Positions 1,985 to 57,024 of a stretch of 57,024 nt of DNA are shown here, piece by piece. Both the position numbers and the translations under genes were made by a program. The DNA comes from a virus (lineage: Duplodnaviria; Caudoviricetes), in the IMG/VR virus record IMGVR_UViG_3300048074_000019, positions 1 through 57,024 of that record; one strand, 5' to 3'. Position 1 is the first letter of the stretch. Every line of letters starts with the position of its first letter. The notes below the pieces were generated by a model. That model was not told where the DNA came from. It saw only the letters and a list, made by a program, of their open reading frames with translations, and searched no databases.

Positions 1985-4312
1985 ATGGCAGACCTCGGGC
2001 AAAACGGCGTCATCCAGTTTACTCCCCCGGCGCAACTGGAGCAGCAGCTTGCGGACGCCGCCGCGATGAAGGCGAAGATGGCCGCGCCGCAGCCGTCGCA
2101 GCCCCAGTATCCGGAACTTGCCGGCTACGTGAAGGCGCAGTTCGAGATTTTCCGCAACCACCGCAACACGCAGGCCGGCTGGAGCAATCGCATGCTCGCG
2201 GCGCTGCGCTCGTTCAACGGACAGTATGATCCGACCAAGCTCGTCGAGATCACGAAGTGGGGTGGCTCCACGGTCTACGCGCGCCTGATCGCGCAGAAGT
2301 GCCGCGCGGCGTCGTCGCTGTTGCGCGACATCTATCTCGGCCCGGATATCCCGTGGACCCTGCAGCCGCCGAAGGACCCAGAGGTTCCGGAAGACATCGC
2401 CGCCAAGATCGACGCGCTCGTGAAGGCCGAAGAGCAGAAGGTGACGCAGCAGCTTGGGCAGCCGCCGAGCCCGAGCGACTTGGCGGAGCGCCGGCGCGCG
2501 CTGCTCGAACAGGCGCAGGATGCGGTCAAGCGCAAGGTTGCGCAGCAGGCCCGCACGTCGAGCGACAAAATCCAGGATATGCTGACGCAGGGCGGTTACT
2601 ACCACGCGCTCGCGGAGTTCCTCGTCGACCTGCCGATCTTCCCGTTCGCCTGCATCAAAGGGCCGGTGGTCAAGGTTATCCCGACGGTGGTGTGGCCGCC
2701 GAACGGTGGGCAGCCGACTGTCAAGCAGACCCCGACCCTGACGTGGAACCGGGTCTCCCCCTTCGACATCTGGTTCACGCCCGGCGTCGCGGACATCGAA
2801 AACGCAAATGTGATCGAGAAGCTTCGCGTCACGCGCGCGGAACTCAACGACTTGCTCGACCTGCCAGGATACAATACATCGGAAATCCGGGCGGTGCTGG
2901 ACGAGTACGGCCGCGGCGGATTGTATGACAACTGGGACACCACCGACGCCGAGCGAAGCGTGCTGGAGAACAGGGAGAACCCGGCGTGGAACCGCTCCGG
3001 GATGATCTCGATGATGGAGTTCAACGGCAATGTCCAGGGGCGTATCCTGCAAGACTACGGTATGCCGGTTCAGGACGAGCTTCGGGACTATCACGTTCAG
3101 GTGTGGGTCATCGGGTCTCATGTCATTAAGTGCCATATGTCGCCCAGCCCGCGGCAGCGGCATCCTTACTTCATTACTTCGTTCGAGAAGGTGCCTGGCA
3201 CACCCGTCGGGAATGGCCTCACTGATCTTCTTCAGGACCTGCAGGAGAGTGCCAACGCAACGTTGCGCTCGCTGATCAACAACATCTCGATTTCGTCTGG
3301 CCCCCAGGTGGTCATCAACGACGACATGCTGGCGCCGGAAGAGAACGGAGAGGACCTGTATCCATGGAAGCGATGGCACACCCGCAACGATCCGATGACG
3401 TCGAGCGGCAAGCAGCCGATCAGCTTCTTCATGCCGGCGTCGAACGCGCAGCAACTTATTTCGGTCTATCAGGAGTTTGTGGCCATTGCGGACGACGTCT
3501 CGGCCATCCCGAAGTATGTCGGTGGACAGGCTGGTGGTGGTGCGGGTCGGACAGCGTCTGGCCTCGCCATGCTGATGGGCAACGCGAGCAAAATCCTCCA
3601 GACAGTGTCGGCGAACATTGACCGCGATGTGATCGAGGGGTCCATGATGCAGTTGCAGGACCTGCTGCTGCTGACGGACAAATCGGGCCTACTGTCGGGC
3701 AACGAACGCCTCACCGTGCAGGGCGTCAACGTGGCGATCCAGCGCGAGACGCTGCGCCAGCGCCAGATCGAGTTCTTGACCGCGACGAACAACCCGACCG
3801 ACTTGAAGATCATGGGCATCAAGGGTCGCAGCGTCGTGCTGCGTTCGGTGTCGACGACGATCGGCATGCCTGGCGAGGAGATCGTGCCGCCGGAAGACCA
3901 GATCGACCGCATGATGCAGGAAGAGCAGCGTGCCAAGCAGCAGGGTAGCATCGACGCGGCCGTTGCCAAGGCGGTCTCCAGCGGTGTCGAGGCTGGTGTC
4001 AAGCGCATCACGACCGAACTCACGTCCGGTATTTTGGCGACGCACGCCCAGATGCCGCAGGGTAATCCGACGCATATCGGAACGCCTGGCGATCCATCGT
4101 TCGGCCAGGGTCAGAACCACACTAACAATCCGGATATGGACCTCGGCCAACAGCAGTCGTCGCCGCAGCAGCCGGGTTCCATGGCTCACGGCGCCGCTCA
4201 GGCGCAAGGCCGCCAGCCGACGCCGCTCTCGAACTCCATGGGACCGCAGACGCACCTGACGGGTAACCAGCCAGGTCCGCACGCCAAGCCAGTGAGCGGG
4301 GGTGTTGGATGA
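1985..4312 (+). CDS. portal protein with Q/P/G-rich C-terminal extension
   Basis: Follows TerL; podoviral portal motifs (RVSPFDIWF, ITSFEKVPG..GNGL, RTASGLAMLMG); start ATG 1985 preferred over 1949. Confidence 0.88.
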   Translation: MADLGQNGVIQFTPPAQLEQQLADAAAMKAKMAAPQPSQPQYPELAGYVKAQFEIFRNHRNTQAGWSNRMLAALRSFNGQYDPTKLVEITKWGGSTVYARLIAQKCRAASSLLRDIYLGPDIPWTLQPPKDPEVPEDIAAKIDALVKAEEQKVTQQLGQPPSPSDLAERRRALLEQAQDAVKRKVAQQARTSSDKIQDMLTQGGYYHALAEFLVDLPIFPFACIKGPVVKVIPTVVWPPNGGQPTVKQTPTLTWNRVSPFDIWFTPGVADIENANVIEKLRVTRAELNDLLDLPGYNTSEIRAVLDEYGRGGLYDNWDTTDAERSVLENRENPAWNRSGMISMMEFNGNVQGRILQDYGMPVQDELRDYHVQVWVIGSHVIKCHMSPSPRQRHPYFITSFEKVPGTPVGNGLTDLLQDLQESANATLRSLINNISISSGPQVVINDDMLAPEENGEDLYPWKRWHTRNDPMTSSGKQPISFFMPASNAQQLISVYQEFVAIADDVSAIPKYVGGQAGGGAGRTASGLAMLMGNASKILQTVSANIDRDVIEGSMMQLQDLLLLTDKSGLLSGNERLTVQGVNVAIQRETLRQRQIEFLTATNNPTDLKIMGIKGRSVVLRSVSTTIGMPGEEIVPPEDQIDRMMQEEQRAKQQGSIDAAVAKAVSSGVEAGVKRITTELTSGILATHAQMPQGNPTHIGTPGDPSFGQGQNHTNNPDMDLGQQQSSPQQPGSMAHGAAQAQGRQPTPLSNSMGPQTHLTGNQPGPHAKPVSGGVG

Positions 4313-5176: not shown

Positions 5177-5746
5177 ATGACGCGCGTCCCCCCGATTATC
5201 CCGGTGCCGAGTTCGTCGTCGCATGACACGTTCGACGACAACCGTATCCCCGTCGTTCTGAAGATGGCGGTCGATCTGGTCAACACGAAGCAAATCCCGG
5301 GCCCGCAGGGTTCAACCGGACCTACCGGCCCGACGGCCGGCGGTGTGAGCCCGACCGGTGCCACTGGCTTTACGGGTCCGACCGGGGCACTCCCGACCGG
5401 CCCGGCTGGCGTGGTGGGCCCGACCGGCAACACTGGCTACCAAGGCCCACGTGGCCCTGTCGGCCCGCTTGCGAGTGCGTCACAGAACGGCAACGCCACA
5501 GGTCCGACCGGCAACACCGGTCCGCAGGGTTCGAGTACCGGCCCCGCGGGGAACACTGGTCCTCAGTCGGCGACCGGTGCAACTGGTCCGGCCGGTACGA
5601 CTGGCCAGCGCGGCATCGTCGGTGCAGCAGGCCCGGTTGTGACCGTGAAGTGGATACCGCCGGTCGACAACCCGCACATCAACGGTGCGGTGTGGAACCC
5701 CGGTGGACAGACCGGCCCGGGAGTGCTACGCATCTCCAACGGCTAA
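5177..5746 (+). CDS. collagen-like (G-X-T) protein, paralogue of 4648-5163
   Basis: GPT repeats; similar N-terminal helix and C-terminal [18 protein letters not shown]; GGAG SD. Confidence 0.85.
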
Positions 5747-5786
5747 CGCCACCACCATAACCCTGACCCCCAACTCAGGATGCCCA

Positions 5787-7796
5787 ATGACCAAGCCCTC
5801 GCTTGCTCTGAATATGATCGTCAAGAACGAGGCAGCACGTATCGAGCGCTGCCTCCGCTCCGTCCTCCCCTACGTGAAAGCCGTGTCGATCATCGACACT
5901 GGGTCCACTGACGAGACGCGCGAGATCATCACGCGCGTGTGCGCCGAATACTGCGTCCCACAATTTACGCACGCGGGCGTGTTTGAGAATTTTTCTCAAG
6001 CGCGCAACGATGCGTTCGCATTCGCCCAGCGAAACAACGGCGGCTGCTTGCCGTTCTGCCAGTTCGCACTCCTCGTCGATGCGGATATGGAGCTTGTCGT
6101 CACCGACCCCACGGCCTTCGACAACCTCAACGCCGGCGCGCTGTCCTACGACATGATGCAGAAGGGCGGTGCGGTCTCCTACATGAACCGTCGCCTCGCC
6201 AATCTGCAGGCGCGCGATAACCCGTATGTCGGCGTTACGCACGAGTACCTGGACCTCCCCGCTGCGGGCCTGATCACCGGTGCTAGCTTCATCGATCATG
6301 CGGACGGTGCGAACCGGGTGAACAAGTTCGAGCGCGATGCGGCGTTGCTTGAGGCTGCCCTCGATGTAGAGCCGACCAACGCCCGCTACTGGTACTACCT
6401 CGGCAACACGTATCGTGATTGGCGGCGCCCAGCGCTCGCTGCCGAGGCCTACAAGAAACGGATTGAATTGGGTGGGTGGGATGAAGAGACCCACAGTGCG
6501 ATGATGAACCTCGCCTTCACTCATCGTGATCGCGGTGACCCCGATGCTTTTGTACGACAGATGGTGGACGCCTATGCGTTCCGGCCCTCGCGTGCGGAGC
6601 CGCTCTACGATCTTGCGAAGTATTACCGGGAGAAAGGGAACAACGCCGCGGCGCTGCTCTTTGCCACTGCCGGGATCAACAAGAAGCGCCCTGACGATGT
6701 CCTCTTTGTCAACGATTTTGTATACAGCCACGGTTTGCGTTATGAGTACGCTGTCGCGGGATTTTATGACCCGGCGACATGCGCACGCGCGGCTGAGATT
6801 ACGAATGAGCTTGCTCTTGATCCAGCGTGCCCGGCCGAGCATCGCGCGAGCGCCCGGTCGAACCTATACTGGTTCACCGAGCCGCTGAAACAACTTTGCC
6901 CATCGCTCGAACCGGTACGCCTAAACTTCGTGCCGCCGCATGGATACGAAGCGATGAACCCGTCGGTCGAAGTCGATCAGGGAACGATCATGTGCAATAT
7001 CCGGTGCGTCAACTACCGGATCGATGCGCGTGGCGCGTACATTATCCACGGCGGCGGTGAGGCGATTGAAACGCGCAATTTCGTCGCCATGCTGGAGCCG
7101 GAGTGGTTGACCACCCACAATGTTGCAGAAGTGCTATGGCATCGTCCTCCGCCGCGTTTCGGGCTTGTGTTGGGTTTGGAAGATATCCGGCTCTGGCGAT
7201 ACTGTGGCCATCTTCATTTCAGCGCGACGGTGCGCGAGCAGTGCAACACCGGCACCTGTCAGATCGTGACGGGATCATTGGCTTATGACCCATCGAACAC
7301 GAAGTATATGGTGGTGCAGCCGGAGTGGGAGCCGGTCACGGGCGAAGAGCAGCACGAGAAAAACTGGATGCCCATGCCGTCGCGGCCATCCGGGCCTCCG
7401 CGCTTCATGTACCGCTGCAACTCGACGGTCGAACTCGGCAGGCCGAGTACAGTTACCCGCACCGACACTCCGTTCTATGTCGACGAGATCAGCGGGTCGT
7501 CCCAGTTGGTCCCGTTCAAAAACGGCTATCTCGCGGTGGTTCATGAAGCGGCGGCGGGCCCGGATGGAAAGCGAACGTACTGGCATCGCTTCGCGTGGTT
7601 CACCCTGCAGGGTGAGTTGCATAGGCTCAGTAAGCCGTTCGTGTTCTTTGCTCGCCAGATCGAATTTTGCGCGGGGCTAGCGCTGCATCCGGACGGGCGC
7701 CGCCTATTGATTTCGTTCGGTGTTCGCGACGAAGAGGCGTGGGTCGCCACGGTGCAGATCGAAGAAGTCGCGACACTGCTACGGGAGTACAAATGA
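5787..7796 (+). CDS. GT2 glycosyltransferase + TPR + C-terminal beta-propeller-like (glycoside hydrolase-like) domain
   Basis: LNMIVKNE, DTGSTD, NFSQARN, DAD (DxD), GVTHEY; TPR segment RYWYYLGNTY/RAEPLYDLA; C-terminal NPS, GLEDIRL, EKNWMP, IEFCAGL, SFGVRD. Confidence 0.88.
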   Translation: MTKPSLALNMIVKNEAARIERCLRSVLPYVKAVSIIDTGSTDETREIITRVCAEYCVPQFTHAGVFENFSQARNDAFAFAQRNNGGCLPFCQFALLVDADMELVVTDPTAFDNLNAGALSYDMMQKGGAVSYMNRRLANLQARDNPYVGVTHEYLDLPAAGLITGASFIDHADGANRVNKFERDAALLEAALDVEPTNARYWYYLGNTYRDWRRPALAAEAYKKRIELGGWDEETHSAMMNLAFTHRDRGDPDAFVRQMVDAYAFRPSRAEPLYDLAKYYREKGNNAAALLFATAGINKKRPDDVLFVNDFVYSHGLRYEYAVAGFYDPATCARAAEITNELALDPACPAEHRASARSNLYWFTEPLKQLCPSLEPVRLNFVPPHGYEAMNPSVEVDQGTIMCNIRCVNYRIDARGAYIIHGGGEAIETRNFVAMLEPEWLTTHNVAEVLWHRPPPRFGLVLGLEDIRLWRYCGHLHFSATVREQCNTGTCQIVTGSLAYDPSNTKYMVVQPEWEPVTGEEQHEKNWMPMPSRPSGPPRFMYRCNSTVELGRPSTVTRTDTPFYVDEISGSSQLVPFKNGYLAVVHEAAAGPDGKRTYWHRFAWFTLQGELHRLSKPFVFFARQIEFCAGLALHPDGRRLLISFGVRDEEAWVATVQIEEVATLLREYK

Positions 7797-9790: not shown

Positions 9791-10041
9791 CAGTCACCCC
9801 AACTGACGCACTGAAGCACTACGCCCACGCCCTGCAGATAGCCGCCCCTCGCGAATGGGCGGCGTTTGTCGAGTGCTTCGACGCCTACGCCACCGATGTT
9901 ACCGTGGCGGTAACAAACGCCGAGCAGCATGAAATCCTCGTCGCGCAGGGTCGGGCCAAGGCCTTCCTGCATCTCTTGCGCTCGTTCCGCGAGTGCCACC
10001 TAAAACCCCAACCAGCCCCGCCCTCAGCCGGAAACGCCTGA
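9787..10041 (+). CDS. small protein upstream of the scaffold (Bbp19-like position)
   Basis: TTGA overlap; helical with AQGRA motif; typical pre-scaffold position. Confidence 0.65.
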   Translation: MTVTPTDALKHYAHALQIAAPREWAAFVECFDAYATDVTVAVTNAEQHEILVAQGRAKAFLHLLRSFRECHLKPQPAPPSAGNA

Positions 10042-43954: not shown

Positions 43955-44200
43955 TCAGCCCCCGACCAACCGTGCGCTGTGCGACTTGCCGATCCACGGA
44001 CTGTCAACCGAGATTTTCTTATCGTTGCCGCGTCGGGCAGGTTTGGTGTAGGGCTTCGGCACGACGATGTAGCCGGCGTCGTCCAGCCAGCGGACAAGCT
44101 GCCGGGCGCTGCCGTGAGTGAAGGCCTTGGTCAGAAAGAACTGGCGGATGGCTTCCTCCGCCTCAATGCCAGTCGTGGATCGATTGCTAATTCCGGCCAT
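43955..44200 (-). CDS. hypothetical protein
   Basis: GGAGG SD; L..AGYIVVPK. Confidence 0.6.
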   Translation of the reverse strand: MAGISNRSTTGIEAEEAIRQFFLTKAFTHGSARQLVRWLDDAGYIVVPKPYTKPARRGNDKKISVDSPWIGKSHSARLVGG

Positions 44201-50305: not shown

Positions 50306-50614
50306 TCACTTACCGCCGCGGTAAACGGAAACTTTATCCGGCGCGCCCAGTATGCTGGTCGTGATCCGGCGCCCAGTATGCTGGTCGTGGGCCCGCAACA
50401 CGCAGACCCCATAGTCCAGCCAGCTTCGCCGCCAGTCGACGAGCAGCCGACCGGTCCGCCTGATATAGAACTCATTGGTCAGCGTACCCGGCTGCTCGTA
50501 TAAAGCCGGGTACGACACCATCTGCCTCGCCTGGTTCAGCTTTTTTGAGGCCCGGCTTATCTGATCACAGATGCACTGGCGCTCAACTAACTCGTCCTGC
50601 TCCTGCGGCGTCAT
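50306..50614 (-). CDS. hypothetical protein
   Basis: TAATG coupling with the vWA gene. Confidence 0.55.
   Translation of the reverse strand: MTPQEQDELVERQCICDQISRASKKLNQARQMVSYPALYEQPGTLTNEFYIRRTGRLLVDWRRSWLDYGVCVLRAHDQHTGRRITTSILGAPDKVSVYRGGK
50336..50389. repeat. tandem duplication (28 + 26 nt)
   Basis: ATCCGGCG(CG)CCCAGTATGCTGGTCGTG twice. Confidence 0.9.
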
Positions 50615-51948
50615 TACGGATTGATCCGCACCACGTCGCCGAACGGCGCCTCCACGCTGGTCGTCATCGCCCAGATGCACAGGTAGGAAGGCTCCTGCTC
50701 GGGGAAGTCGACGTAGCCGTCAGTGAAGCCGATGAACACCTCGGGCTGCTCCGTGTGCTCCGCGATCCACTCGAACACGGGGTGGCAGTCCGTACCACCA
50801 CCGCCCGGGGCACCGTCGTACTTGATCTGCTGCAGGTCCGCCGGCTCAGCGATCTCGTCGATGCGCTGGATGCGGGCGTCACACCACACCACCGTGAGGC
50901 GCTGCGGCCGGCAGTCCTCGACGATCGAGCCGAGTTCCGACAGGTACCGGCACAATTCGTCCTGCCCGATCGAGCCCGACGTGTCACCCCAGCACACCAC
51001 CCACCCTGCACCGTTACCGGAGCGGGACGGCATGTGGATGTCCTGCACGATGAACCGCCGGTCCGGCTTGCGCCAGTTGTAGCTGCCACTGCCCACCTTG
51101 CGGTTGAAGATACCGCGGATGTGCTCGGTCCAGGGCACGACGGGGTTGAGCAGTTCTTCGAACATGCGCTGCAGTGCGCCTGGCATCTTGCCCTGCGACT
51201 TCATGCTCTCCAGCACCTGCGCTGCCGCAACCTCGACACCCCACTGCTGCTGGTTGCGCGGCTGCGAGCCAGAACCATTGCTGCTGCCCGGCGCCAGCAC
51301 GTAGTCGAACCCGGGAGCGCCAGTCTTGCCACCGCCGCTCTCTTCATCGTCGTAGACCTTGCGGTAGACGTCGACCACGCTCTCATTGGCCGTCGCGATC
51401 GTGTCGTCGAGCAGACAATCCTTCGGCGGCTTGCCGATGCGGCTATCGCGCAGCAGGGCATTGATACGGAAGTCCATCGCCTTCTGCATCGTGCCGTTGC
51501 GGAACGGGAGCGTGCTGCCGTCGCTCATGGGGACCGTGTCGGTCCGCCGGCAGTGGTTCAGGAACTCGACGTCGCCGTAGACGTTGTGCACAATCTCGTG
51601 CCCCATGATGAACACGCGCTCATTCAAGTCGTACTTGAAGAACGTCTCCGGGTTGATCAGGATGTTGCGGGCATCCGTCGCTGCGACCGGCACCTTGTGC
51701 GTAGGCACGGCACCGTGGCTGCCGTTGTTGTTAGACAGCAGCTTGTAGAACAGATGCCGGAACCCGGGGCACGTCCACGCCATGAGCGACATGGTGTCCT
51801 GCCACTGGTTCACCTGCTGCGGTGTGAGCTTGAGGCTCTCCGCCTCCAGTTCCGCCGGGGTGAGTTCGGGCGGCATGTTCGGCGGAGAGCCAGTTGAGGT
51901 AGTCGACACGGGAGGCGACGACATACCTGCGTTTTGCGTTGTAGCCAT
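50614..51948 (-). CDS. DUF2201-type metallopeptidase (HExxH) + vWA domain protein
   Basis: AATD, HEIVH, AMDFRIN, DTSGS MIDAS, GGGGTD, FTDG; GAGGAG SD. Confidence 0.88.
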   Translation of the reverse strand: MATTQNAGMSSPPVSTTSTGSPPNMPPELTPAELEAESLKLTPQQVNQWQDTMSLMAWTCPGFRHLFYKLLSNNNGSHGAVPTHKVPVAATDARNILINPETFFKYDLNERVFIMGHEIVHNVYGDVEFLNHCRRTDTVPMSDGSTLPFRNGTMQKAMDFRINALLRDSRIGKPPKDCLLDDTIATANESVVDVYRKVYDDEESGGGKTGAPGFDYVLAPGSSNGSGSQPRNQQQWGVEVAAAQVLESMKSQGKMPGALQRMFEELLNPVVPWTEHIRGIFNRKVGSGSYNWRKPDRRFIVQDIHMPSRSGNGAGWVVCWGDTSGSIGQDELCRYLSELGSIVEDCRPQRLTVVWCDARIQRIDEIAEPADLQQIKYDGAPGGGGTDCHPVFEWIAEHTEQPEVFIGFTDGYVDFPEQEPSYLCIWAMTTSVEAPFGDVVRINP

Positions 51949-52128
51949 ATAGCTTGCTCCTCTCTTCGTTAAAATACTGCAGGCGTGCTTGTTTCCAAGC
52001 ATGCCACTGCATCCAGGTTCTGTAGCTGGCGCCCACCGGTTCGTGCCGTTGGCAAAACGCAATGTAGCGCTCCTTCGCCGCACCGATACGATGCGACCAC
52101 CATCTGGCATCTTGGACCGTGACCCCGA

Positions 52129-52497
52129 TCAAAGTGCACCGTCCTCCGGGTTGATGTTCTGACCGACGCGAGAGATCATAGCATACGCTCGCTTGGCGTC
52201 CATCACGCAGAGCCACTGGTCCTCGACGTGCTCGCTGGCGGTCGTCCGGAACAGGTGAGCCCGGGCGACCATGTAGCGCTCGGCGAAGCTGCGGAACCGC
52301 GCGTCACTGGGGGCGGCTCGCGTCCCCTGCTGCGGCTGGCCGATGTTGGGATTGAACGTCCCAGCTTGGCCCATGCCGCCGCCGGCCGCGCCGCCGTAGC
52401 TGCTGGGGTTGCTAGCACCGCCACCACTGAGGCCAGCCGATCCGCCAACGGCGACCGGGATAACCTGCGCGATCCCTATGTTGGCTTTAGCTGCCAT
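52129..52497 (-). CDS. hypothetical protein with Gly-rich N-terminus
   Basis: Overlaps the upstream stop; globular C-terminal half. Confidence 0.6.
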   Translation of the reverse strand: MAAKANIGIAQVIPVAVGGSAGLSGGGASNPSSYGGAAGGGMGQAGTFNPNIGQPQQGTRAAPSDARFRSFAERYMVARAHLFRTTASEHVEDQWLCVMDAKRAYAMISRVGQNINPEDGAL

Positions 52498-52780
52498 TGA
52501 CTGCCGCCGCCAGTTCGCTGGACACCGCCTCGCTGCCGCTCTCTTCGCCAACGGCGTCGAGACCCTGCTGGATGGTATCGTCCAACAGCTTGATCTCCTC
52601 GTGGCCAGTGAAGAAGTCGTCGCTGTAGATAGCGATCTGTGTCGACTTCGGGTTGTCGCTGATCAACTGCGCCGTGGCGTAGGCATGCCGGGCGGCCTGC
52701 TGCAGCACTTGCTTCATCGGGCCGAGCTTGTCCGCGTCCGCGAAGTCGACGCGAAGCTCGATGGTGAACTGTCTCTGCAT
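52487..52780 (-). CDS. hypothetical protein (frame open up to 52957)
   Basis: GAGGAG SD before MQRQFTIELRVDF. Confidence 0.7.
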   Translation of the reverse strand: MQRQFTIELRVDFADADKLGPMKQVLQQAARHAYATAQLISDNPKSTQIAIYSDDFFTGHEEIKLLDDTIQQGLDAVGEESGSEAVSSELAAAVNGS

Positions 52781-53065
52781 GTGTGCTCCTCTCGTTATCG
52801 TATCCAAGCGGTATAACTTCAGCACCGCTATGCTGCCTGACTTCCACTCAATCAGCCTATTGAACTGATCATCGGAGCCGGTGAATGATGCCACATCTTT
52901 ATACGTCATGGCGCCCGACTTGATGGCGGCGGCATGTGAGCGCGTGAGTGGCAGCATTCATTGGCACCTTGTTACCGTGGCGGTAAGCGCTCTCTCCCGC
53001 TCCCCCATCCGGCTGCGTGCCGATCAGGCCAGCCATCACCGGGGAGGGGAGAGACGCTTGCGTTG

Positions 53066-54229
53066 CTAGTGAGCCAGCGACGAAATGATGGCTACCAGCG
53101 CGGCGTTCTTGTTGATCCACGCCTGCATCGCGGGCTGGTTGATGATCCCCTTATAGTCCCTGCGGAGCAGCGAACTGATGTAGGTCACCCCCATATCCTT
53201 GGGCAGGCGCTGGATGTACTGGATGCACGGCGCGAGGTCCTGCGTCTGCGTGTAGCCCGCCAACTGGTAGGCCATCAGCATCTGCAGGTCGGCGCGGTTC
53301 GGCACAGGCGTGTTAGCGGGGTCGCTGATCACGTCCTGATAGGACGGCAGTTCGAGCAGGAACTGCAGATGGCTCAGCAGGCTCTGCGTCGCCGGCATGC
53401 CGATCGTCCCGGCGATGGTGTTGGTCATCACCGCGTCCACCTCCTGATTGCCGGACATCGCCCAGCGGGTCTGCAGGTAGCGGTCGACAGCGCAGAGTTG
53501 CCGCGGGTTGCACCACGGTCCCTGCTCTTTCGGCTCGGGTTCGAACACGATCTGCGGGTTCGCCGCAGCCCACGCCTTGATGACTGGCGTCGTCTGCCAC
53601 GTCTTGCCCTGATGGACGTAAGGCTTGTCCATGTAGTTCAGCGTGACGTCGATGTCGCCGTCGATGTGGATCACCGTGCGGCGGGCGATGCAGAAGTCGA
53701 AGTCCTTCGACACGCCATACCGAGCGCCCTGATTGGTGCAGGCGATGCGGACGCTGCCATGCGGCAGATACCACGGCGACGTGCCCCCGTTCAGGAAGAT
53801 TTCCGCCACAGCACGCTTGACGTCGCCCTCACCCTGGCCGTACTCGTCGATCACGAGAAAGCAGCGATCGAACATGAACGCGGGCTGCACGGGACCGCCA
53901 AGCCCATCCGTCATCATCATCCACAACGGGACGCTGGGGTCAGTGACCGTGATCTGGCGCTTCTCCGGCTGCCCGGTGGCGATGTCGAGCACGTCGTAGC
54001 TCTTCTCGCCCTTGAACTGGAAGCCGATCAGGTCCGGCGGGGTCTGCGTTGCCGCGAAGATCACGCCGTATCCCCAACGAATGCCCTGCGGAGCATCGCG
54101 GTCACGCAACTCCTTGAACATTTCGAAGGTGACGCTCGACTTGCCGAGACCAGAGCCGCTTTCCCAGAGGATCGCATTGCCGGCCTCGATCAGCGCCATT
54201 GTCTCTTGGCGCGCTTGGATGATATTCAT
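53066..54229 (-). CDS. MoxR-like AAA+ ATPase
   Basis: Walker A SGSGLGKS, DLIG, Walker B LVIDE, sensor ACTN, NPR. Confidence 0.88.
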   Translation of the reverse strand: MNIIQARQETMALIEAGNAILWESGSGLGKSSVTFEMFKELRDRDAPQGIRWGYGVIFAATQTPPDLIGFQFKGEKSYDVLDIATGQPEKRQITVTDPSVPLWMMMTDGLGGPVQPAFMFDRCFLVIDEYGQGEGDVKRAVAEIFLNGGTSPWYLPHGSVRIACTNQGARYGVSKDFDFCIARRTVIHIDGDIDVTLNYMDKPYVHQGKTWQTTPVIKAWAAANPQIVFEPEPKEQGPWCNPRQLCAVDRYLQTRWAMSGNQEVDAVMTNTIAGTIGMPATQSLLSHLQFLLELPSYQDVISDPANTPVPNRADLQMLMAYQLAGYTQTQDLAPCIQYIQRLPKDMGVTYISSLLRRDYKGIINQPAMQAWINKNAALVAIISSLAH

Positions 54230-54352
54230 ATAGCCTCCTCAGTTTAGGTGTGGACCAAATCAGTGAGCCCCTCGCGGGGCGGCCATCTTCGGGCGCCGCA
54301 TCACGGCGCGACGCCTGCCGCGTCGGGCAAGCGTTTCGGCCTGCGCCGTGGC

Positions 54353-54994
54353 TCAGATACCGAGAGCCTTGTTGAGATCAGCCACCAGCGTTGCCGGCAC
54401 CTGATGACGGAACGGAAACTCCTTCGGGAGGTGCTTGTAGAAGCGCTCCCCTTCCGGCCACGACCTCTGCAGCGACTTGAAGGACTGCACGCCGGCGAGC
54501 ATCGCCGTCAACGTCGTTTCCGTTTTGGAGCGCTCTGCAGCAAGCGCTTGCGACGCGTCTGCAAAGGCGGAGATACGCTCCTGGAGCTTGCCGTCCTTCA
54601 CAGTGAAGAACTTCGCATCCTCGTTCCCCAGATGCCGAGGCATGGGGTCTTGAACCAGCAGCGTATGGACACGACCGTCAACACGGAACGCTACCTGACG
54701 CCCTTCCGGGGCCGGTCGCCCATAGTGGTCTTCGCAACTGACGGCGAAGGGCGGGCCAAGGCGACGTGCCATGGCGAGTTTGGCGCTCCCGAAGATCGAC
54801 ACCATGGCCGCATGGCCGAGGCGCTGGCCCTCCCGCTTCATTTCCGCAAACCGCTTGTCGAAAGCATGGGCTATCGCTTTCTTCAAGATGCTGCTGCGCA
54901 TGGCAGTGTTAAGGCGCATGCCGCCCTTGCGGTCGATCACTTCCAGTTCATCCGGCTCAGCCGGCCGGCTTATCATGACTACGCGTTCAGACAT
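54353..54994 (-). CDS. Nmad5 (nucleotide-modification-associated domain 5) protein
   Basis: RLN..MR..I...A and L..V.S.K.L...WPE; AAGGAG SD. Confidence 0.7.
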   Translation of the reverse strand: MSERVVMISRPAEPDELEVIDRKGGMRLNTAMRSSILKKAIAHAFDKRFAEMKREGQRLGHAAMVSIFGSAKLAMARRLGPPFAVSCEDHYGRPAPEGRQVAFRVDGRVHTLLVQDPMPRHLGNEDAKFFTVKDGKLQERISAFADASQALAAERSKTETTLTAMLAGVQSFKSLQRSWPEGERFYKHLPKEFPFRHQVPATLVADLNKALGI

Positions 54995-55036: not shown

Positions 55037-55516
55037 TTACCGCTTCGCGGTTCGCTTGGCCGGCTTGGTGTACGGGAGCACGCTCGGCATGCGACCGTTC
55101 GGCCACGGCACCTTGCCGTCCAGGTAGCGCTGGATCGCCGTAGCCGCGACATTCGGCTCGTTGTAGTTGATGGTGTTGTCGTAGCTGTGGAACAGTTGGC
55201 TGAGCCGCGCACCATTGTGGTCACACAGATACTCGAACAGTTGTCCGATGATCTCTTGCTCCCGCACGTTCTTGCCCTCGATACCGAGCAGGAACACGCC
55301 AGCCCAACCCCCGATGCAGGCGGCAGTGCCGCAGCCATGGTAATTCCCGTCTCTGTAACGGAATTTCCCGTGCCTGATGATGCTCGACATATCGAGTTCG
55401 CGCCCACCGCCATTGATCCGGTGATCGAGCAGGTGATCACGCACCTGGGCCAGGGTCGCTCGCAACTCAGTCTTGGTGATCTTCCGTTCCGCTTCATAGC
55501 GAAAAACGCTATCCAT
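55037..55516 (-). CDS. hypothetical early protein
   Basis: CGTAACIGGWA motif; GAGGAG SD 8 nt upstream. Confidence 0.75.
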   Translation of the reverse strand: MDSVFRYEAERKITKTELRATLAQVRDHLLDHRINGGGRELDMSSIIRHGKFRYRDGNYHGCGTAACIGGWAGVFLLGIEGKNVREQEIIGQLFEYLCDHNGARLSQLFHSYDNTINYNEPNVAATAIQRYLDGKVPWPNGRMPSVLPYTKPAKRTAKR

Positions 55517-55534
55517 ATGGTTCACTCCTCAGTT

Positions 55535-55883
55535 GGGTTGAAGGTCCCCCGGTGACCCGCTGTTCCTGCCGTTTGGGTGGGCAGGCGCGGCACATCACCG
55601 GGGGTATCGACCGCATCCGCCCTGCCACTCAACCTAGGCAGGAGGGAAGTCCGCGGCCACCGCTTGCTGCATGCTTTCCCTACGGCGCGGGAGCAGGCGT
55701 CTAGCAGCTTCGCCTCTCTACAGGATGTCGCACGACACATCGTGGGTTCGCCGAGGGGGGTATACCCGATCGTTCACGGCAAGCCGTGAGCCACGATCCC
55801 TCGTACTATGCCGACCCACCCTTCCGGTGCTGGCCTGTCGCTTGTGCACAGGCCGTGGGTCCATCCCGTCTCGTTCCGCTGCG
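55535..55883 (-). ncRNA. candidate large structured RNA
   Basis: About 350 nt with no credible CDS; nested stems with CUUG and GGAA tetraloops on the - strand. Confidence 0.5.
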
Positions 55884-56069
55884 TTACCGCGGCGGTAATT
55901 CGGTCTCCCTTCTCGTGCTGCGGACCGCGTCCATCTGACGCTGCACGCTGGCCAGATACCGCTGCTTGGCAATGCTGTGGGCTTGCGCCGCATCGCATCC
56001 ACCGCGCAGTGCATCCGTCACGAACCGGTCGTAGATGTACTTGCTCTCGTCATTGAGGGCTTCGCGCAT
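55884..56069 (-). CDS. small hypothetical protein
   Basis: GGAGGA SD; 61 aa. Confidence 0.55.
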   Translation of the reverse strand: MREALNDESKYIYDRFVTDALRGGCDAAQAHSIAKQRYLASVQRQMDAVRSTRRETELPPR

Positions 56070-56081
56070 CCAGTCCTCCGC

Positions 56082-56179
56082 TGCTCCTCATCGTTGAGTG
56101 GTGGTGCCAAGGCGCTGAGGAGCAACCACCTTGGCACCTCGCTGGCGCTTTTCTGCCGAAGCAGTTCGCCGTCCAGCGA
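56082..56179 (-). ncRNA. H-type pseudoknot plus UUCG hairpin in a 5' leader
   Basis: Interleaved perfect stems 56082-90/56116-24 and 56103-12/56129-38. Confidence 0.6.
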
Positions 56180-56197
56180 AACTGAATTACTCGGGCG

Positions 56198-56917
56198 TCA
56201 CGGCGTTGTCGCCGGTGCCGGACCCTTCGCCTTCCCGCGTGCCGTGGCGATCGCGGACAACCGCTTGCGCATTTCATGCCGCGCCGTCCTGATCTCGGTG
56301 CTGTTGTCCTGCGCCGTGCCCTGGCTGGCACTGCCGTCGATCAGCTTGTCGAGTTGCTTCACAGCCGCCTCGATGATCTGCTCGGCAGTGGCGAGGTTGC
56401 GGCCGGGACGATAGCAGAACGTTTTGAGTTCTGCATCATCAATCAGCGTGTCACGCTTCAACTGTGTGCGAGCATACTTCAGCAGCGTGTTCGCAGCATC
56501 GTCGAGCTTCTTCGCTTCGGCCGGTATCTTCTTCAGGTTCTGGCGCGTCGTCATCAGGTTGTTGACGGTCGCCAGCGGCTCGCCGTTGCCACCCTTGGGC
56601 CACGAGCCCAGCTTGATCGACGTGCGCAGGGTCGAGACCAACTTCATCTGGTTCGGCGCCTTCGCATCGAACACGACAGCGCCCTGCTGCGCCTTGACGT
56701 AGGTCTCGGCGAGCTTGGTCGCGTCGTCGACGTCAGTGCCGTGCTTGTTACCGCTCAGGTCGAGCGCGCCATGATAGCCACCCTCAACGGCCTTGAGCAG
56801 GAACTTGACCTGCGTATCCTTGCCCTTGCCGGCATCGGCGCCAAGCTGCGTTGCTGCAGCGAGCAGGTCGTCGAACGTGATCTTGTTCCCCGTCGGTGTA
56901 GGTGTAGGTGTGGACAT
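56198..56917 (-). CDS. hypothetical early protein
   Basis: 239 aa; AACTGAGGAG leader. Confidence 0.8.
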   Translation of the reverse strand: MSTPTPTPTGNKITFDDLLAAATQLGADAGKGKDTQVKFLLKAVEGGYHGALDLSGNKHGTDVDDATKLAETYVKAQQGAVVFDAKAPNQMKLVSTLRTSIKLGSWPKGGNGEPLATVNNLMTTRQNLKKIPAEAKKLDDAANTLLKYARTQLKRDTLIDDAELKTFCYRPGRNLATAEQIIEAAVKQLDKLIDGSASQGTAQDNSTEIRTARHEMRKRLSAIATARGKAKGPAPATTP

Positions 56918-57024
56918 TGTGAACTCCTCAGTTCAGGGGTTAAAGTTTCGCGGCGTTGCCGCGTCGGGCAAAAAATTCGCGCCGCGCCCCTAGCGTGGGA
57001 CGTCGGGGACTACCGTGCCACCTT

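Follow-up and report, generated by a model that had tools for sequence, protein, structure and literature searches.

The early end of IMG/VR virus record IMGVR_UViG_3300048074_000019 raises the question of what an H-type pseudoknot placed directly before a ribosome-binding site (RBS) may be for. The whole record of 57,024 nucleotides (57 kb; estimated completeness 87%) was analysed and is called the window here. The pseudoknot lies on the - strand at 56082-56138 and had been described in an earlier note made from the letters of the DNA. It was found that this knot is the core of a real RNA family and that its hairpin loop is complementary to a word present in early RBSs. The link to ribosome-binding sites drawn in the earlier note holds, and it extends to sites that were missed there, as the loop also complements the RBSs of the upstream 239-amino-acid (239-aa) gene, of an ATPase gene and of three more early genes.

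The knot is built from two interleaved, perfect stems of 10 and 9 base pairs (bp), S1 and S2; on re-reading and in an independent scan, all earlier statements on stems and coordinates proved correct. S1 pairs GGUGCCAAGG (56138-56129) with CCUUGGCACC (56112-56103). The UG of loop L1 (UGGU) and the CG of loop L2 (GCG) lengthen this stem by a U-G and a G-C pair to 12 bp in the window, and to 13 model pairs in the family as a whole; with the extension, its 5' strand occupies 56127-56138 and its 3' strand 56103-56114. The loop of S1, GUUGCUCCUCAG (56115-56126), contains the 5' strand of S2, UGCUCCUCA (56124-56116), which pairs with UGAGGAGCA (56090-56082), referred to as S2', in a duplex of -22.3 kcal/mol that closes the pseudoknot. 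Between S1 and S2' lies loop L3, ACCACUCAACGA (56091-56102). The next Shine-Dalgarno (SD) sequence begins 2 nt after S2': the dinucleotide GC is followed by GGAGGA (56079-56074), a 4-nt spacer (CUGG) and the AUG (56069-56067) of a 61-aa open reading frame (ORF; 55884-56069). On the 5' side, S1 directly adjoins, with a gap of 0 nt, the base of a further predicted hairpin, P0 (56139-56179; UCGCUGG...CUGC-UUCG-GCAG...CCAGCGA), whose interior is variable and whose base is UCGCUGG/CCAGCGA. The 5' edge of the element is the conserved motif AGUUUCGC (56176-56183), which is single-stranded or basal; in relatives, the ORF before it often has a stop codon that overlaps with the AG of this motif. In the nested minimum free energy fold, which contains no pseudoknots, both P0 and the S1 hairpin are present (z = -2.2).

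A scan of both strands of the window for perfect knots with S1 of at least 10 bp and S2 of at least 9 bp returned a single site, the knot at 56082-56138, and no such knot was found in 136 first-order Markov random windows of equal length. A looser requirement of 9 and 8 bp was matched in 4 of the 136. Rarity by chance at the looser level is by itself insufficient when many windows are scanned, and the decisive evidence is conservation in relatives. A consensus scan around the element gave no sigma-70-like promoter and no terminator, such scans being weak for unidentified hosts. The combination of a GC-rich hairpin and a direct U-tract that characterizes intrinsic terminators is absent from the element of the window: its L3 has no U-tract, and neither the element nor the sequence just behind it yielded a terminator call. 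Some relatives do have a short U-run 4-6 nt past the stem; the L3 of the window and that of relative L017 have none.

Relatives were gathered with the 239-aa protein and then with its alignments, which gave 3, 16 and 40 loci on viral and metagenome contigs (designated by L numbers). No relatives of the 239-aa gene were found in prokaryote genomes, blastn of the region against cultured phages gave no match, and an exact 18-mer of the loop region, searched against viral contigs, occurred in only two, both already among the relatives. A per-sequence knot finder that is independent of any alignment recovered the same architecture in all of the viral loci (16, of which two have an atypical loop) and in the majority of the metagenome loci having enough sequence. 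The knot lies downstream of the 239-aa gene, or of small ORFs inserted behind that gene. After the removal of duplicates and variants, 33 distinct instances from related uncultured phage contigs were kept. Left out were duplicate contigs (L002-L004, L021, L027, L031, L034, L037, L040 and L056), loci with atypical loops (L012, L020 and L047), with short downstream sequence (L023, L035, L041, L046, L049 and L051), without a detected knot (L039, L044, L048, L052, L053 and L060) or with weak matches to the covariance model only (L043 and L059). The element is present in one copy per genome in the window and in all five near-complete (93-100%) relatives.

The S1 sequence is almost wholly different between lineages (GGCCGGGAAUG/CAUUCCCGGCC, GCGGACGUGG/CCACGUCCGC and GUGCCGGGUGGG/CCCACCCGGCAC are examples). 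A covariance model (CM) made from 16 seeds with S1 only recovered 25 sequences at E <= 0.001 from 27 sources. In this alignment the 13 pairs of S1 are paired in 96.3% of the cells, with 12 of the 13 changed on both sides, and the 10 pairs of S2, which is absent from the model, in 81.7%, with double changes at three of the 10; all five whole-structure measures exceeded those of 500 out of 500 shuffles, and pairing fell to 39-64% when the partners were slid by 1-3 columns, figures that are not probabilities because the alignment was fitted to S1 and the sequences are related. Covariation in homologues, which the earlier note had named as a check, is thus present. The core of S2 consists of two invariant C-G pairs (CC/GG) with covarying flanks. 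The extension pairs of S1 also covary, the first of them being U-G in 16 sequences, U-A in four, C-G in two, G-C in two and A-U in one. The - strand is taken as the RNA strand because G-U pairs are tolerated, including this U-G close to the top of S1, which 16 of 25 sequences retain. The same strand had been favoured in the earlier note on account of the C(UUCG)G loop of P0; the strand assignment stands, and the tetraloop turned out to be specific to this window. A complementarity between L1 (UGGU) and L3 (ACCA), also pointed out there, exists in the window and is not conserved, with 51% of the cells pairing, as in the shuffles.

In six loci whose lineages are too divergent for the CM (L018, L019, L045, L050, L055 and L058), S2 is altered on both strands, as in AUGCUCCUCU/AGAGGAGCAU, GCUCCUUUA/UAAAGGAGC, UGAUCCUUUCG/CGAAAGGAUCA, UGUGCUC/GAGCACA and UACCUUUC/GAAAGGUA. 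The duplex between the loop and its downstream partner ranks in the best 5% of random windows from the same locus in 21 of the 33 instances. The helices at the base of P0 covary as well (UCGCGGAG/CUCCGCGA and UCGUUGCUG/CGGCAACGA), and the gap between P0 and S1 is 0 nt in 22 of the 33 instances according to a permissive finder. L2 has 0-1 nt in most instances once the S1 extension is formed, and L3 measures 5-17 nt (mostly 8-13 nt), is poor in G and is variable in sequence. The upstream ORF ends with a stop codon in contact with P0 or, in L045, L055 and L057, with S1 itself. Two interleaved helices with compensatory changes are what defines an H-type pseudoknot, and both are found here; the element is a real RNA family. 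In L010, a second, weak CM match (24 bits) at 2648-2704 lies shortly before the true knot; it corresponds to a hairpin of 10 bp with the C-rich loop UCCCCCUG, possibly in place of P0.

The loci without a knot prompted a comparison of the loop with other ribosome-binding sites. Here, the word CUGAGGAG is the exact complement of the loop part CUCCUCAG. It has three - strand occurrences in the 57 kb, all of them in RBSs, 5-8 nt before a start codon. These belong to the 239-aa gene (56924-56931; loop duplex -16.6 kcal/mol), the 159-aa gene at 55037-55516 (55525-55532; an 8-nt tag, -21.8 kcal/mol) and the ATPase gene (phrog_1297) at 53066-54229 (54235-54242; -15.9 kcal/mol), and in relatives the first of them changes together with the loop. 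The other half of the loop is complemented by GAGGAGCA in the RBS of a 97-aa ORF at 52487-52780 (52784-52791; -15.4 kcal/mol) and by GAGGAGCAA in that of a 444-aa gene at 50614-51948, an 'HNH endonuclease' in PHROG (51954-51962; -18.7 kcal/mol). Such words are called tags below and the loop the anti-tag; S2' is a copy of the RBS tag and the strongest partner of the loop. Measured as the longest Watson-Crick run of the loop in the -25 to -1 region before a start codon, the match at the S2'/61-aa site and at the 239-aa, ATPase, 97-aa and 444-aa genes amounts to 8-9 nt, against at most 6 nt in 20 late genes and at most 5 nt in 12 other - strand genes. The loop duplexes with the tagged RBSs range from -15.4 to -21.8 kcal/mol, and those with four other computed sites from -3.6 to -10.9 kcal/mol. 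A tag was found in none of the late-gene RBSs examined, and loop-tag complementarity is restricted to early RBSs.

Loop and tags also change together from lineage to lineage. In L008, the loop UGCUCCUCUG (..CUCCUCUG) occurs with the tags CAGAGGAGCA (239-aa gene), CAGAGGAG and AGAGGAGC; in L009, CUCCUCAC with GUGAGGAG; in L018, CUGAUCCUUUCG (including CUGAUCCUUUC) with GAAAGGAUCAG and AAGGAUCAG. L011 combines the loop UGGCUCCUCAGC with the tag GCUGAGGAGCCA at two RBSs, with 12 bp each. Further pairs are GUUGCUCCA and UGGAGCAAC in L036, UGUGCUC and GAGCACA in L045 and L055, CUCCUUUC and GAAAGGAG in L050, and GUCUCCUCG and CGAGGAGAC in L057. On average, a loop forms 7.67 contiguous bp with the 239-aa RBS of its own locus, whereas the loops of other lineages form 6.05; when the 22 distinct loops were permuted among lineages, the observed sum was reached in none of 5000 permutations. 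Excluding the 239-aa RBS and the S2' area, own loops match 1.18 candidate RBS windows per locus versus 0.54, and the number of candidate windows matched over at least 8 nt (26 in 22 loci) was attained in one of 5000 permutations. In three other records, the tag words are clustered within a few kb of the element. The RBS of the ATPase gene is complementary to the loop in most lineages. These include L044, where the ATPase gene lies about 1 kb downstream and its RBS is the best RBS partner of the loop (-17.1 kcal/mol). L044 and L048, as well as L060, have kept P0 and a long hairpin with an anti-tag-like loop and have no S2'.

The reading that is favoured, with a probability of about 0.5, is that the element acts as an operon-embedded anti-RBS regulator of immediate-early translation, the pseudoknot being the pairing in cis with a copy of the tag. 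The element is a structured RNA of about 105 nt inside the immediate-early operon, in which the variable P0 adjoins, and may stack on, the S1 hairpin of 12-13 bp. The S1 loop is the exact complement of a lineage-private extension of the SD sequence, in the window CUGAGGAG / GAGGAGCAA, and this tag marks the RBSs of the first five or six early genes. Pairing between loop and tag would compete with binding of the 30S subunit and cause feedback on, or shut-off of, immediate-early translation. The extra tag copy, S2', 12 nt behind the hairpin, would give the intramolecular form, which would occlude or adjoin the RBS of the next gene while masking the loop. With S2 open, the loop would be free for tagged RBSs on the same or on other transcripts. 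Opening might be brought about by an initiating ribosome, by breathing, or by processing at the single-stranded AGUUU or in L3; the conserved AGUUU would fit the preference of RNase E. Pairing in vivo, translational repression, the opening of S2, processing and action in trans are all what we infer from the sequences, and the knot may be mainly a self-mask or mainly a cis target.

A more specific version, in which the P0-S1 hairpin would be excised from the immediate-early transcript and accumulate as a small RNA that silences in trans, with the pseudoknot as a cap until processing or the passage of a ribosome, is considered doubtful. If it were true, the hairpin would be an RNA-only timer that shuts off immediate-early translation, and the silenced class of genes would be defined by a private SD extension co-evolving with the loop. 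More generally, the element appears to unite an anti-RBS loop, a lineage-private RBS 'address' for one temporal class of genes and an intramolecular decoy. If the pairing is functional, it accounts for the joint change of the loop and several unlinked RBSs, and it offers a mutation-testable model of a virus translational regulon that is set by a few bases beside the SD. Hairpin and tag would then also make a compact orthogonal part for synthetic translational control.

Several observations weigh against the anti-RBS regulator. The intramolecular S2 duplex, at -22.3 kcal/mol, is stronger than any pairing in trans, and an opening step must therefore be assumed. The match to the tags may be indirect, with S2' simply one more tagged RBS. 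Any anti-SD-like loop matches any SD over 4-5 nt, so only the flanks are informative, and in L006, L038 and L060 the match to the own 239-aa RBS is only 5 nt. Phylogeny was not taken into account in the permutation tests, and the same or a similar loop is common to many lineages. In L039, the 239-aa gene runs straight into the RBS of the ATPase gene with no element between them, and scans of L052 and L053 showed no recognisable element. The distant Rhizobium phages that have a 239-aa homologue lack the knot and carry a plain intrinsic terminator at that position. Six instances (L005, L028, L016, L017, L036 and L050) have no start codon within 25 nt of S2'. No promoter or terminator was predicted for a separate small RNA. 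Four metatranscriptome runs contain low-depth contigs over the region, one of which (an X6 contig) spans 56034-56269 at a depth of 2-7; these contigs give neither strand, ends nor level, may stem from DNA carry-over and are not evidence of expression.

The same element could act in cis only, the knot occluding or presenting the RBS of the next gene or coupling it to upstream termination, and the tag match would then be a by-product. This is possible, though rather unlikely. It would account for the conserved spacing between S1 and S2' (the L3 length given above), for S2 being the strongest partner of the loop, and for the position of S2' 4-25 nt from a start codon in 25 of the 33 instances, in four of which (L026, L030, L032 and L033) S2' is apparently the sole SD. 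The stop codon of the upstream ORF adjoins P0, or S1 in the three loci named above, and terminating ribosomes would therefore melt the base of the structure. Since S2' is built from the standard early RBS of the phage, complementarity to other early RBSs could follow as a by-product. Set against this are the six instances without a nearby start codon (in L055 and L058 the downstream sequence is too short to judge) and a downstream gene that is unrelated from phage to phage. Besides, the G in ..CAG of the loop is kept in most rows of the alignment but paired within S2 in just 6 of the 21 sequences with a letter there, and it does pair with the C of CUGAGGAG. In L009 a loop C and an RBS G have changed together outside S2, and the hairpin with its loop is retained without S2' in L044/L048 and L060. 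An operator for a ligand or a protein, either a riboswitch or, as with T4 gene 32 or RegA, a place where the 239-aa protein would bind, appears very improbable. An H-type knot beside an SD, the constant proximity of the conserved 239-aa gene and the conserved U-G wobble near the top of S1 would suit it. L1 and L3 vary in sequence and length, no Rfam riboswitch matches, the 239-aa protein has no recognisable RNA-binding domain, and the regulated gene is not constant. The earlier note had offered both forms of this idea, and neither survives. [quoted passage not shown]

It is also conceivable, if improbable, that the element is a module for RNA processing or stability. P0, S1 and S2 would together make up a quasi-continuous helix and act as an intercistronic site of the RNase III type, analogous to the early RNase III sites of T7, or as a protective end, either the 3' end of the 239-aa mRNA or the 5' end of the downstream mRNA; AGUUU would be a possible RNase E site. 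The near absence of unpaired nucleotides at both junctions (the P0-S1 gap and L2) is in keeping with this, as is the fact that the element occupies the intergenic space from stop codon to RBS. The terminator at the same position in the distant Rhizobium phages points in the same direction, and the knot of L036 and L050 is followed by a motif also found before the 239-aa gene, a hint of a boundary between transcription units. Such a module would have no need for the loop sequence to be conserved or to follow the RBS tags; the window has no U-tract, and contigs cannot show transcript ends. Hardly any weight is given to a transcription element, which, placed after the first early gene, would be a leaky terminator or an antiterminator RNA of the put or nut kind. 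The place of the element, about 1.8 kb from the left end of a direct-terminal-repeat genome and behind the first early gene, resembles that of lambda nutR or HK022 putR, and L3 has a short U-run in many relatives. The U-run is missing from the window and L017, S2' would be made only after any decision on termination, the scans gave no terminator at or directly behind the element, and the match between loop and RBSs would stay unexplained.

The genome around the element is divided by strand. On the + strand of the window lie structural genes (terminase, portal/adaptor, internal virion proteins and tail fibre), and on the - strand the replication and early genes (primase/helicase, helicase, DNA polymerase, the phrog_1297 ATPase and an Nmad5-domain protein). 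By DNA polymerase, the nearest cultured phages are Rhizobium RHph_TM3_14A and its relatives (39% identity), followed by Pseudomonas phiR18 and KPP25 (28%). The genomes that host the element probably belong to a group of uncultured podovirus-like phages, and the phage is probably lytic. One complete relative, whose genome has direct terminal repeats, carries the 239-aa gene at about 1.0-1.7 kb, measured from the left end, and the element at 1778-1839; because of this position, the element is placed in the immediate-early end of the genome. The conserved 239-aa gene itself (56198-56917, - strand) has no assigned function and is followed by the element in the relatives carrying it. Its protein has no Pfam or PHROG match and no informative neighbour in a protein atlas. 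At least 320 metagenomic homologues exist, and the 120 listed are all unnamed or 'hypothetical'; among cultured phages, the search returned only Rhizobium phages, at 25% identity. One of these, RHph_TM3_14A (MN988472.1, L061), has a canonical intrinsic terminator after its distant homologue (3199-3300) and, a little further on, an AT-rich stretch of about 770 bp (3454-4224) with no annotated gene. The window also encodes the Nmad5 (nucleotide-modification-associated) protein (54353-54994, -), the PHROG 'HNH endonuclease' (50614-51948, -) and a glycosyltransferase-like protein (5685-7796, +), which together hint at DNA hypermodification.

Behind the knot, gene content varies. The downstream ORFs of the 33 instances are mutually non-homologous. 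In the simplest genomes the ATPase gene lies directly behind the element. Most instances other than the four with S2' as apparently sole SD have a separate SD 2-12 nt past S2'. The 61-aa ORF of the window is not conserved among relatives and gave no family above threshold. Further downstream, at about 55700-55880 (-) in the window and about 1860-1990 in L005, there is conservation at the nucleotide level (GGAUGGACCC... and AGAGAGGCGAAGCUGCUAGAC) that leads into a small conserved peptide motif, AK[LV]LDA[CR]SRA[LV]GKAC. The window and L005 differ in the upstream frame and start codon of this peptide, and possible readings of the stretch are a leader that is noncoding, a gene with a frameshift or a wrongly called start.

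Other repeated motifs were observed in the same genomes. The palindrome TTACCG-NNN-CGGTAA has 18 copies in the window at up to two mismatches, 12 of them perfect, where one is expected by chance and a maximum of four was reached in 100 shuffles. Its 15-bp sites are at 9899, 18172, 27186, 30448, 33347, 34392, 36915, 39348, 42101, 43325, 46526, 47714, 50310, 52972 and 55884. The copies lie mostly at gene ends or in intergenic gaps, one overlapping the stop codon of the 61-aa ORF behind the knot. The core is present in 49 of 61 related loci, often about 55-65 nt before the 239-aa gene and behind small ORF cassettes; a phage-wide operator, a terminator hairpin and a cassette boundary are candidate roles. 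A second motif, the 14-mer UGCCCGACGCGGCA, is found on the - strand at 56954-56971, 54313-54330 and 44023-44040 and forms a small hairpin, with the arms TTGCC/GGCAA here and CGCCG/CGGCG in relatives. Two of the copies lie before the 239-aa and ATPase genes and the third is at 44027; in nearly all relatives the motif is located 60-80 nt before the 239-aa start, and L036 and L050 have a copy behind the knot. Early promoter and nut-like element are possible roles. The window shows no enrichment of the 10-mer core CCGACGCGGC taken alone (23 copies versus 21.3 expected). The word GCGAAAC in the 5' untranslated region of the 239-aa gene is complementary to the P0 motif GUUUCGC in three loci only and was set aside as probably a chance match.

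The family has no place among those already named, as the earlier note had supposed. Rfam 15 gave no match at E <= 10 in the window from 55500 to 57024, and in twelve related loci only Acido-1 (27.1 bits against a threshold of 50) and, elsewhere, Hammerhead_II, both below threshold. The Acido-1 match lies on the opposite strand of one locus and was taken as chance. The Hammerhead_II match, at 2495-2555 of L015, scores 26.5 bits against a gathering threshold of 37 (E 0.35). A close-up of L038 gave CM scores, relative to gathering thresholds, of 18.6/45 for C4, 14.2/65.3 for CcsR1 and 17.1/71.8 for RAGATH-31. The element belongs to no Rfam family and is a member of none of the systems compared below. 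A literature search on pseudoknot, SD and phage found no description of it, which does not show that it is unpublished. A survey of intergenic regions in IMG/VR 3.0 predicted 8,495 unnamed RNAs, termed csRNAs (PMC10690425), and the element may already be numbered among them.

Riboswitches that sequester the SD, such as preQ1-I/II and SAM-II, have invariant ligand-pocket nucleotides, and these are lacking in the element, whose L1 and L3 are variable; S2' doubles as the SD of the gene concerned, a trait of such riboswitches, in apparently 4 of 33 instances, and a separate SD mostly follows 2-12 nt later. An operator of the T4 gene 32 type lies in the leader of the gene for the SSB that binds it, and no such arrangement exists among the 33 instances.

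In structure, the element may be likened to two translational pseudoknots. The T4 gene 32 structure is likewise a pseudoknot of the H type, lies in the mRNA of a phage immediately 5' of an RBS, and acts in translational control (PMC10690425). The element differs from it in having a variable downstream gene, no SSB and an anti-RBS loop. The gene 32 knot lies in the leader of one specific gene and is bound by the protein of that gene. The activator pseudoknot of repZ/repA in IncI-alpha and IncB plasmids has a core of about 4 bp, activates one gene, is opposed by a separate antisense RNA, and depends for its formation on ribosomes that terminate at an upstream ORF. There, too, a hairpin loop pairs beside the RBS of the next gene and is also the target of a competing RNA-RNA interaction; the plasmid knot differs in that it has neither SD mimicry nor a multi-gene tag.

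In logic, the nearest system would seem to be the C4 antisense RNA of phages P1 and P7 (RF01695), followed by the anti-SD-loop small RNAs of the cuckoo/CcsR1 type. C4 is embedded in the operon that it controls, and its hairpin loops complement RBSs on the same transcript, blocking translation. It has two target-binding loops, is processed by RNase P and controls an antirepressor in temperate phages. The element shares the defining feature, a loop complementary to RBS regions within the same operon, but there is no match in sequence or structure: the C4 model gave no hit in 55500-57024 of the window, and its score in L038 is far below threshold (see above). Moreover, the element has one loop, a pseudoknot with a tag copy and several tagged genes, and its phage is probably a lytic one with terminal repeats. 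The cuckoo, CcsR1 (RF02791) and NfeR1 RNAs of alphaproteobacteria have C/U-rich CCUCCUCCC loops that pair with the RBSs of several mRNAs; each is a free-standing gene of the chromosome, has a promoter and a terminator of its own and several hairpins, and lacks a pseudoknot. A C/U-rich anti-SD hairpin loop with several RBS targets is common to them and the element, whose loop differs in matching a private SD extension beyond the core, besides the low CcsR1 score.

Shut-off of the earliest phage genes by proteins is known, as with T4 RegB, and temperate phages use operon-embedded antisense RNAs, as with C4 of P1. In purpose, RegB may be the parallel: this endoribonuclease recognises GGAG in the RBSs of early genes and thereby shuts off the early class (PMC1702504). 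The difference is that RegB is a protein nuclease, whereas the recogniser in the element would be an RNA loop, and the word recognised would be longer and private to the lineage.

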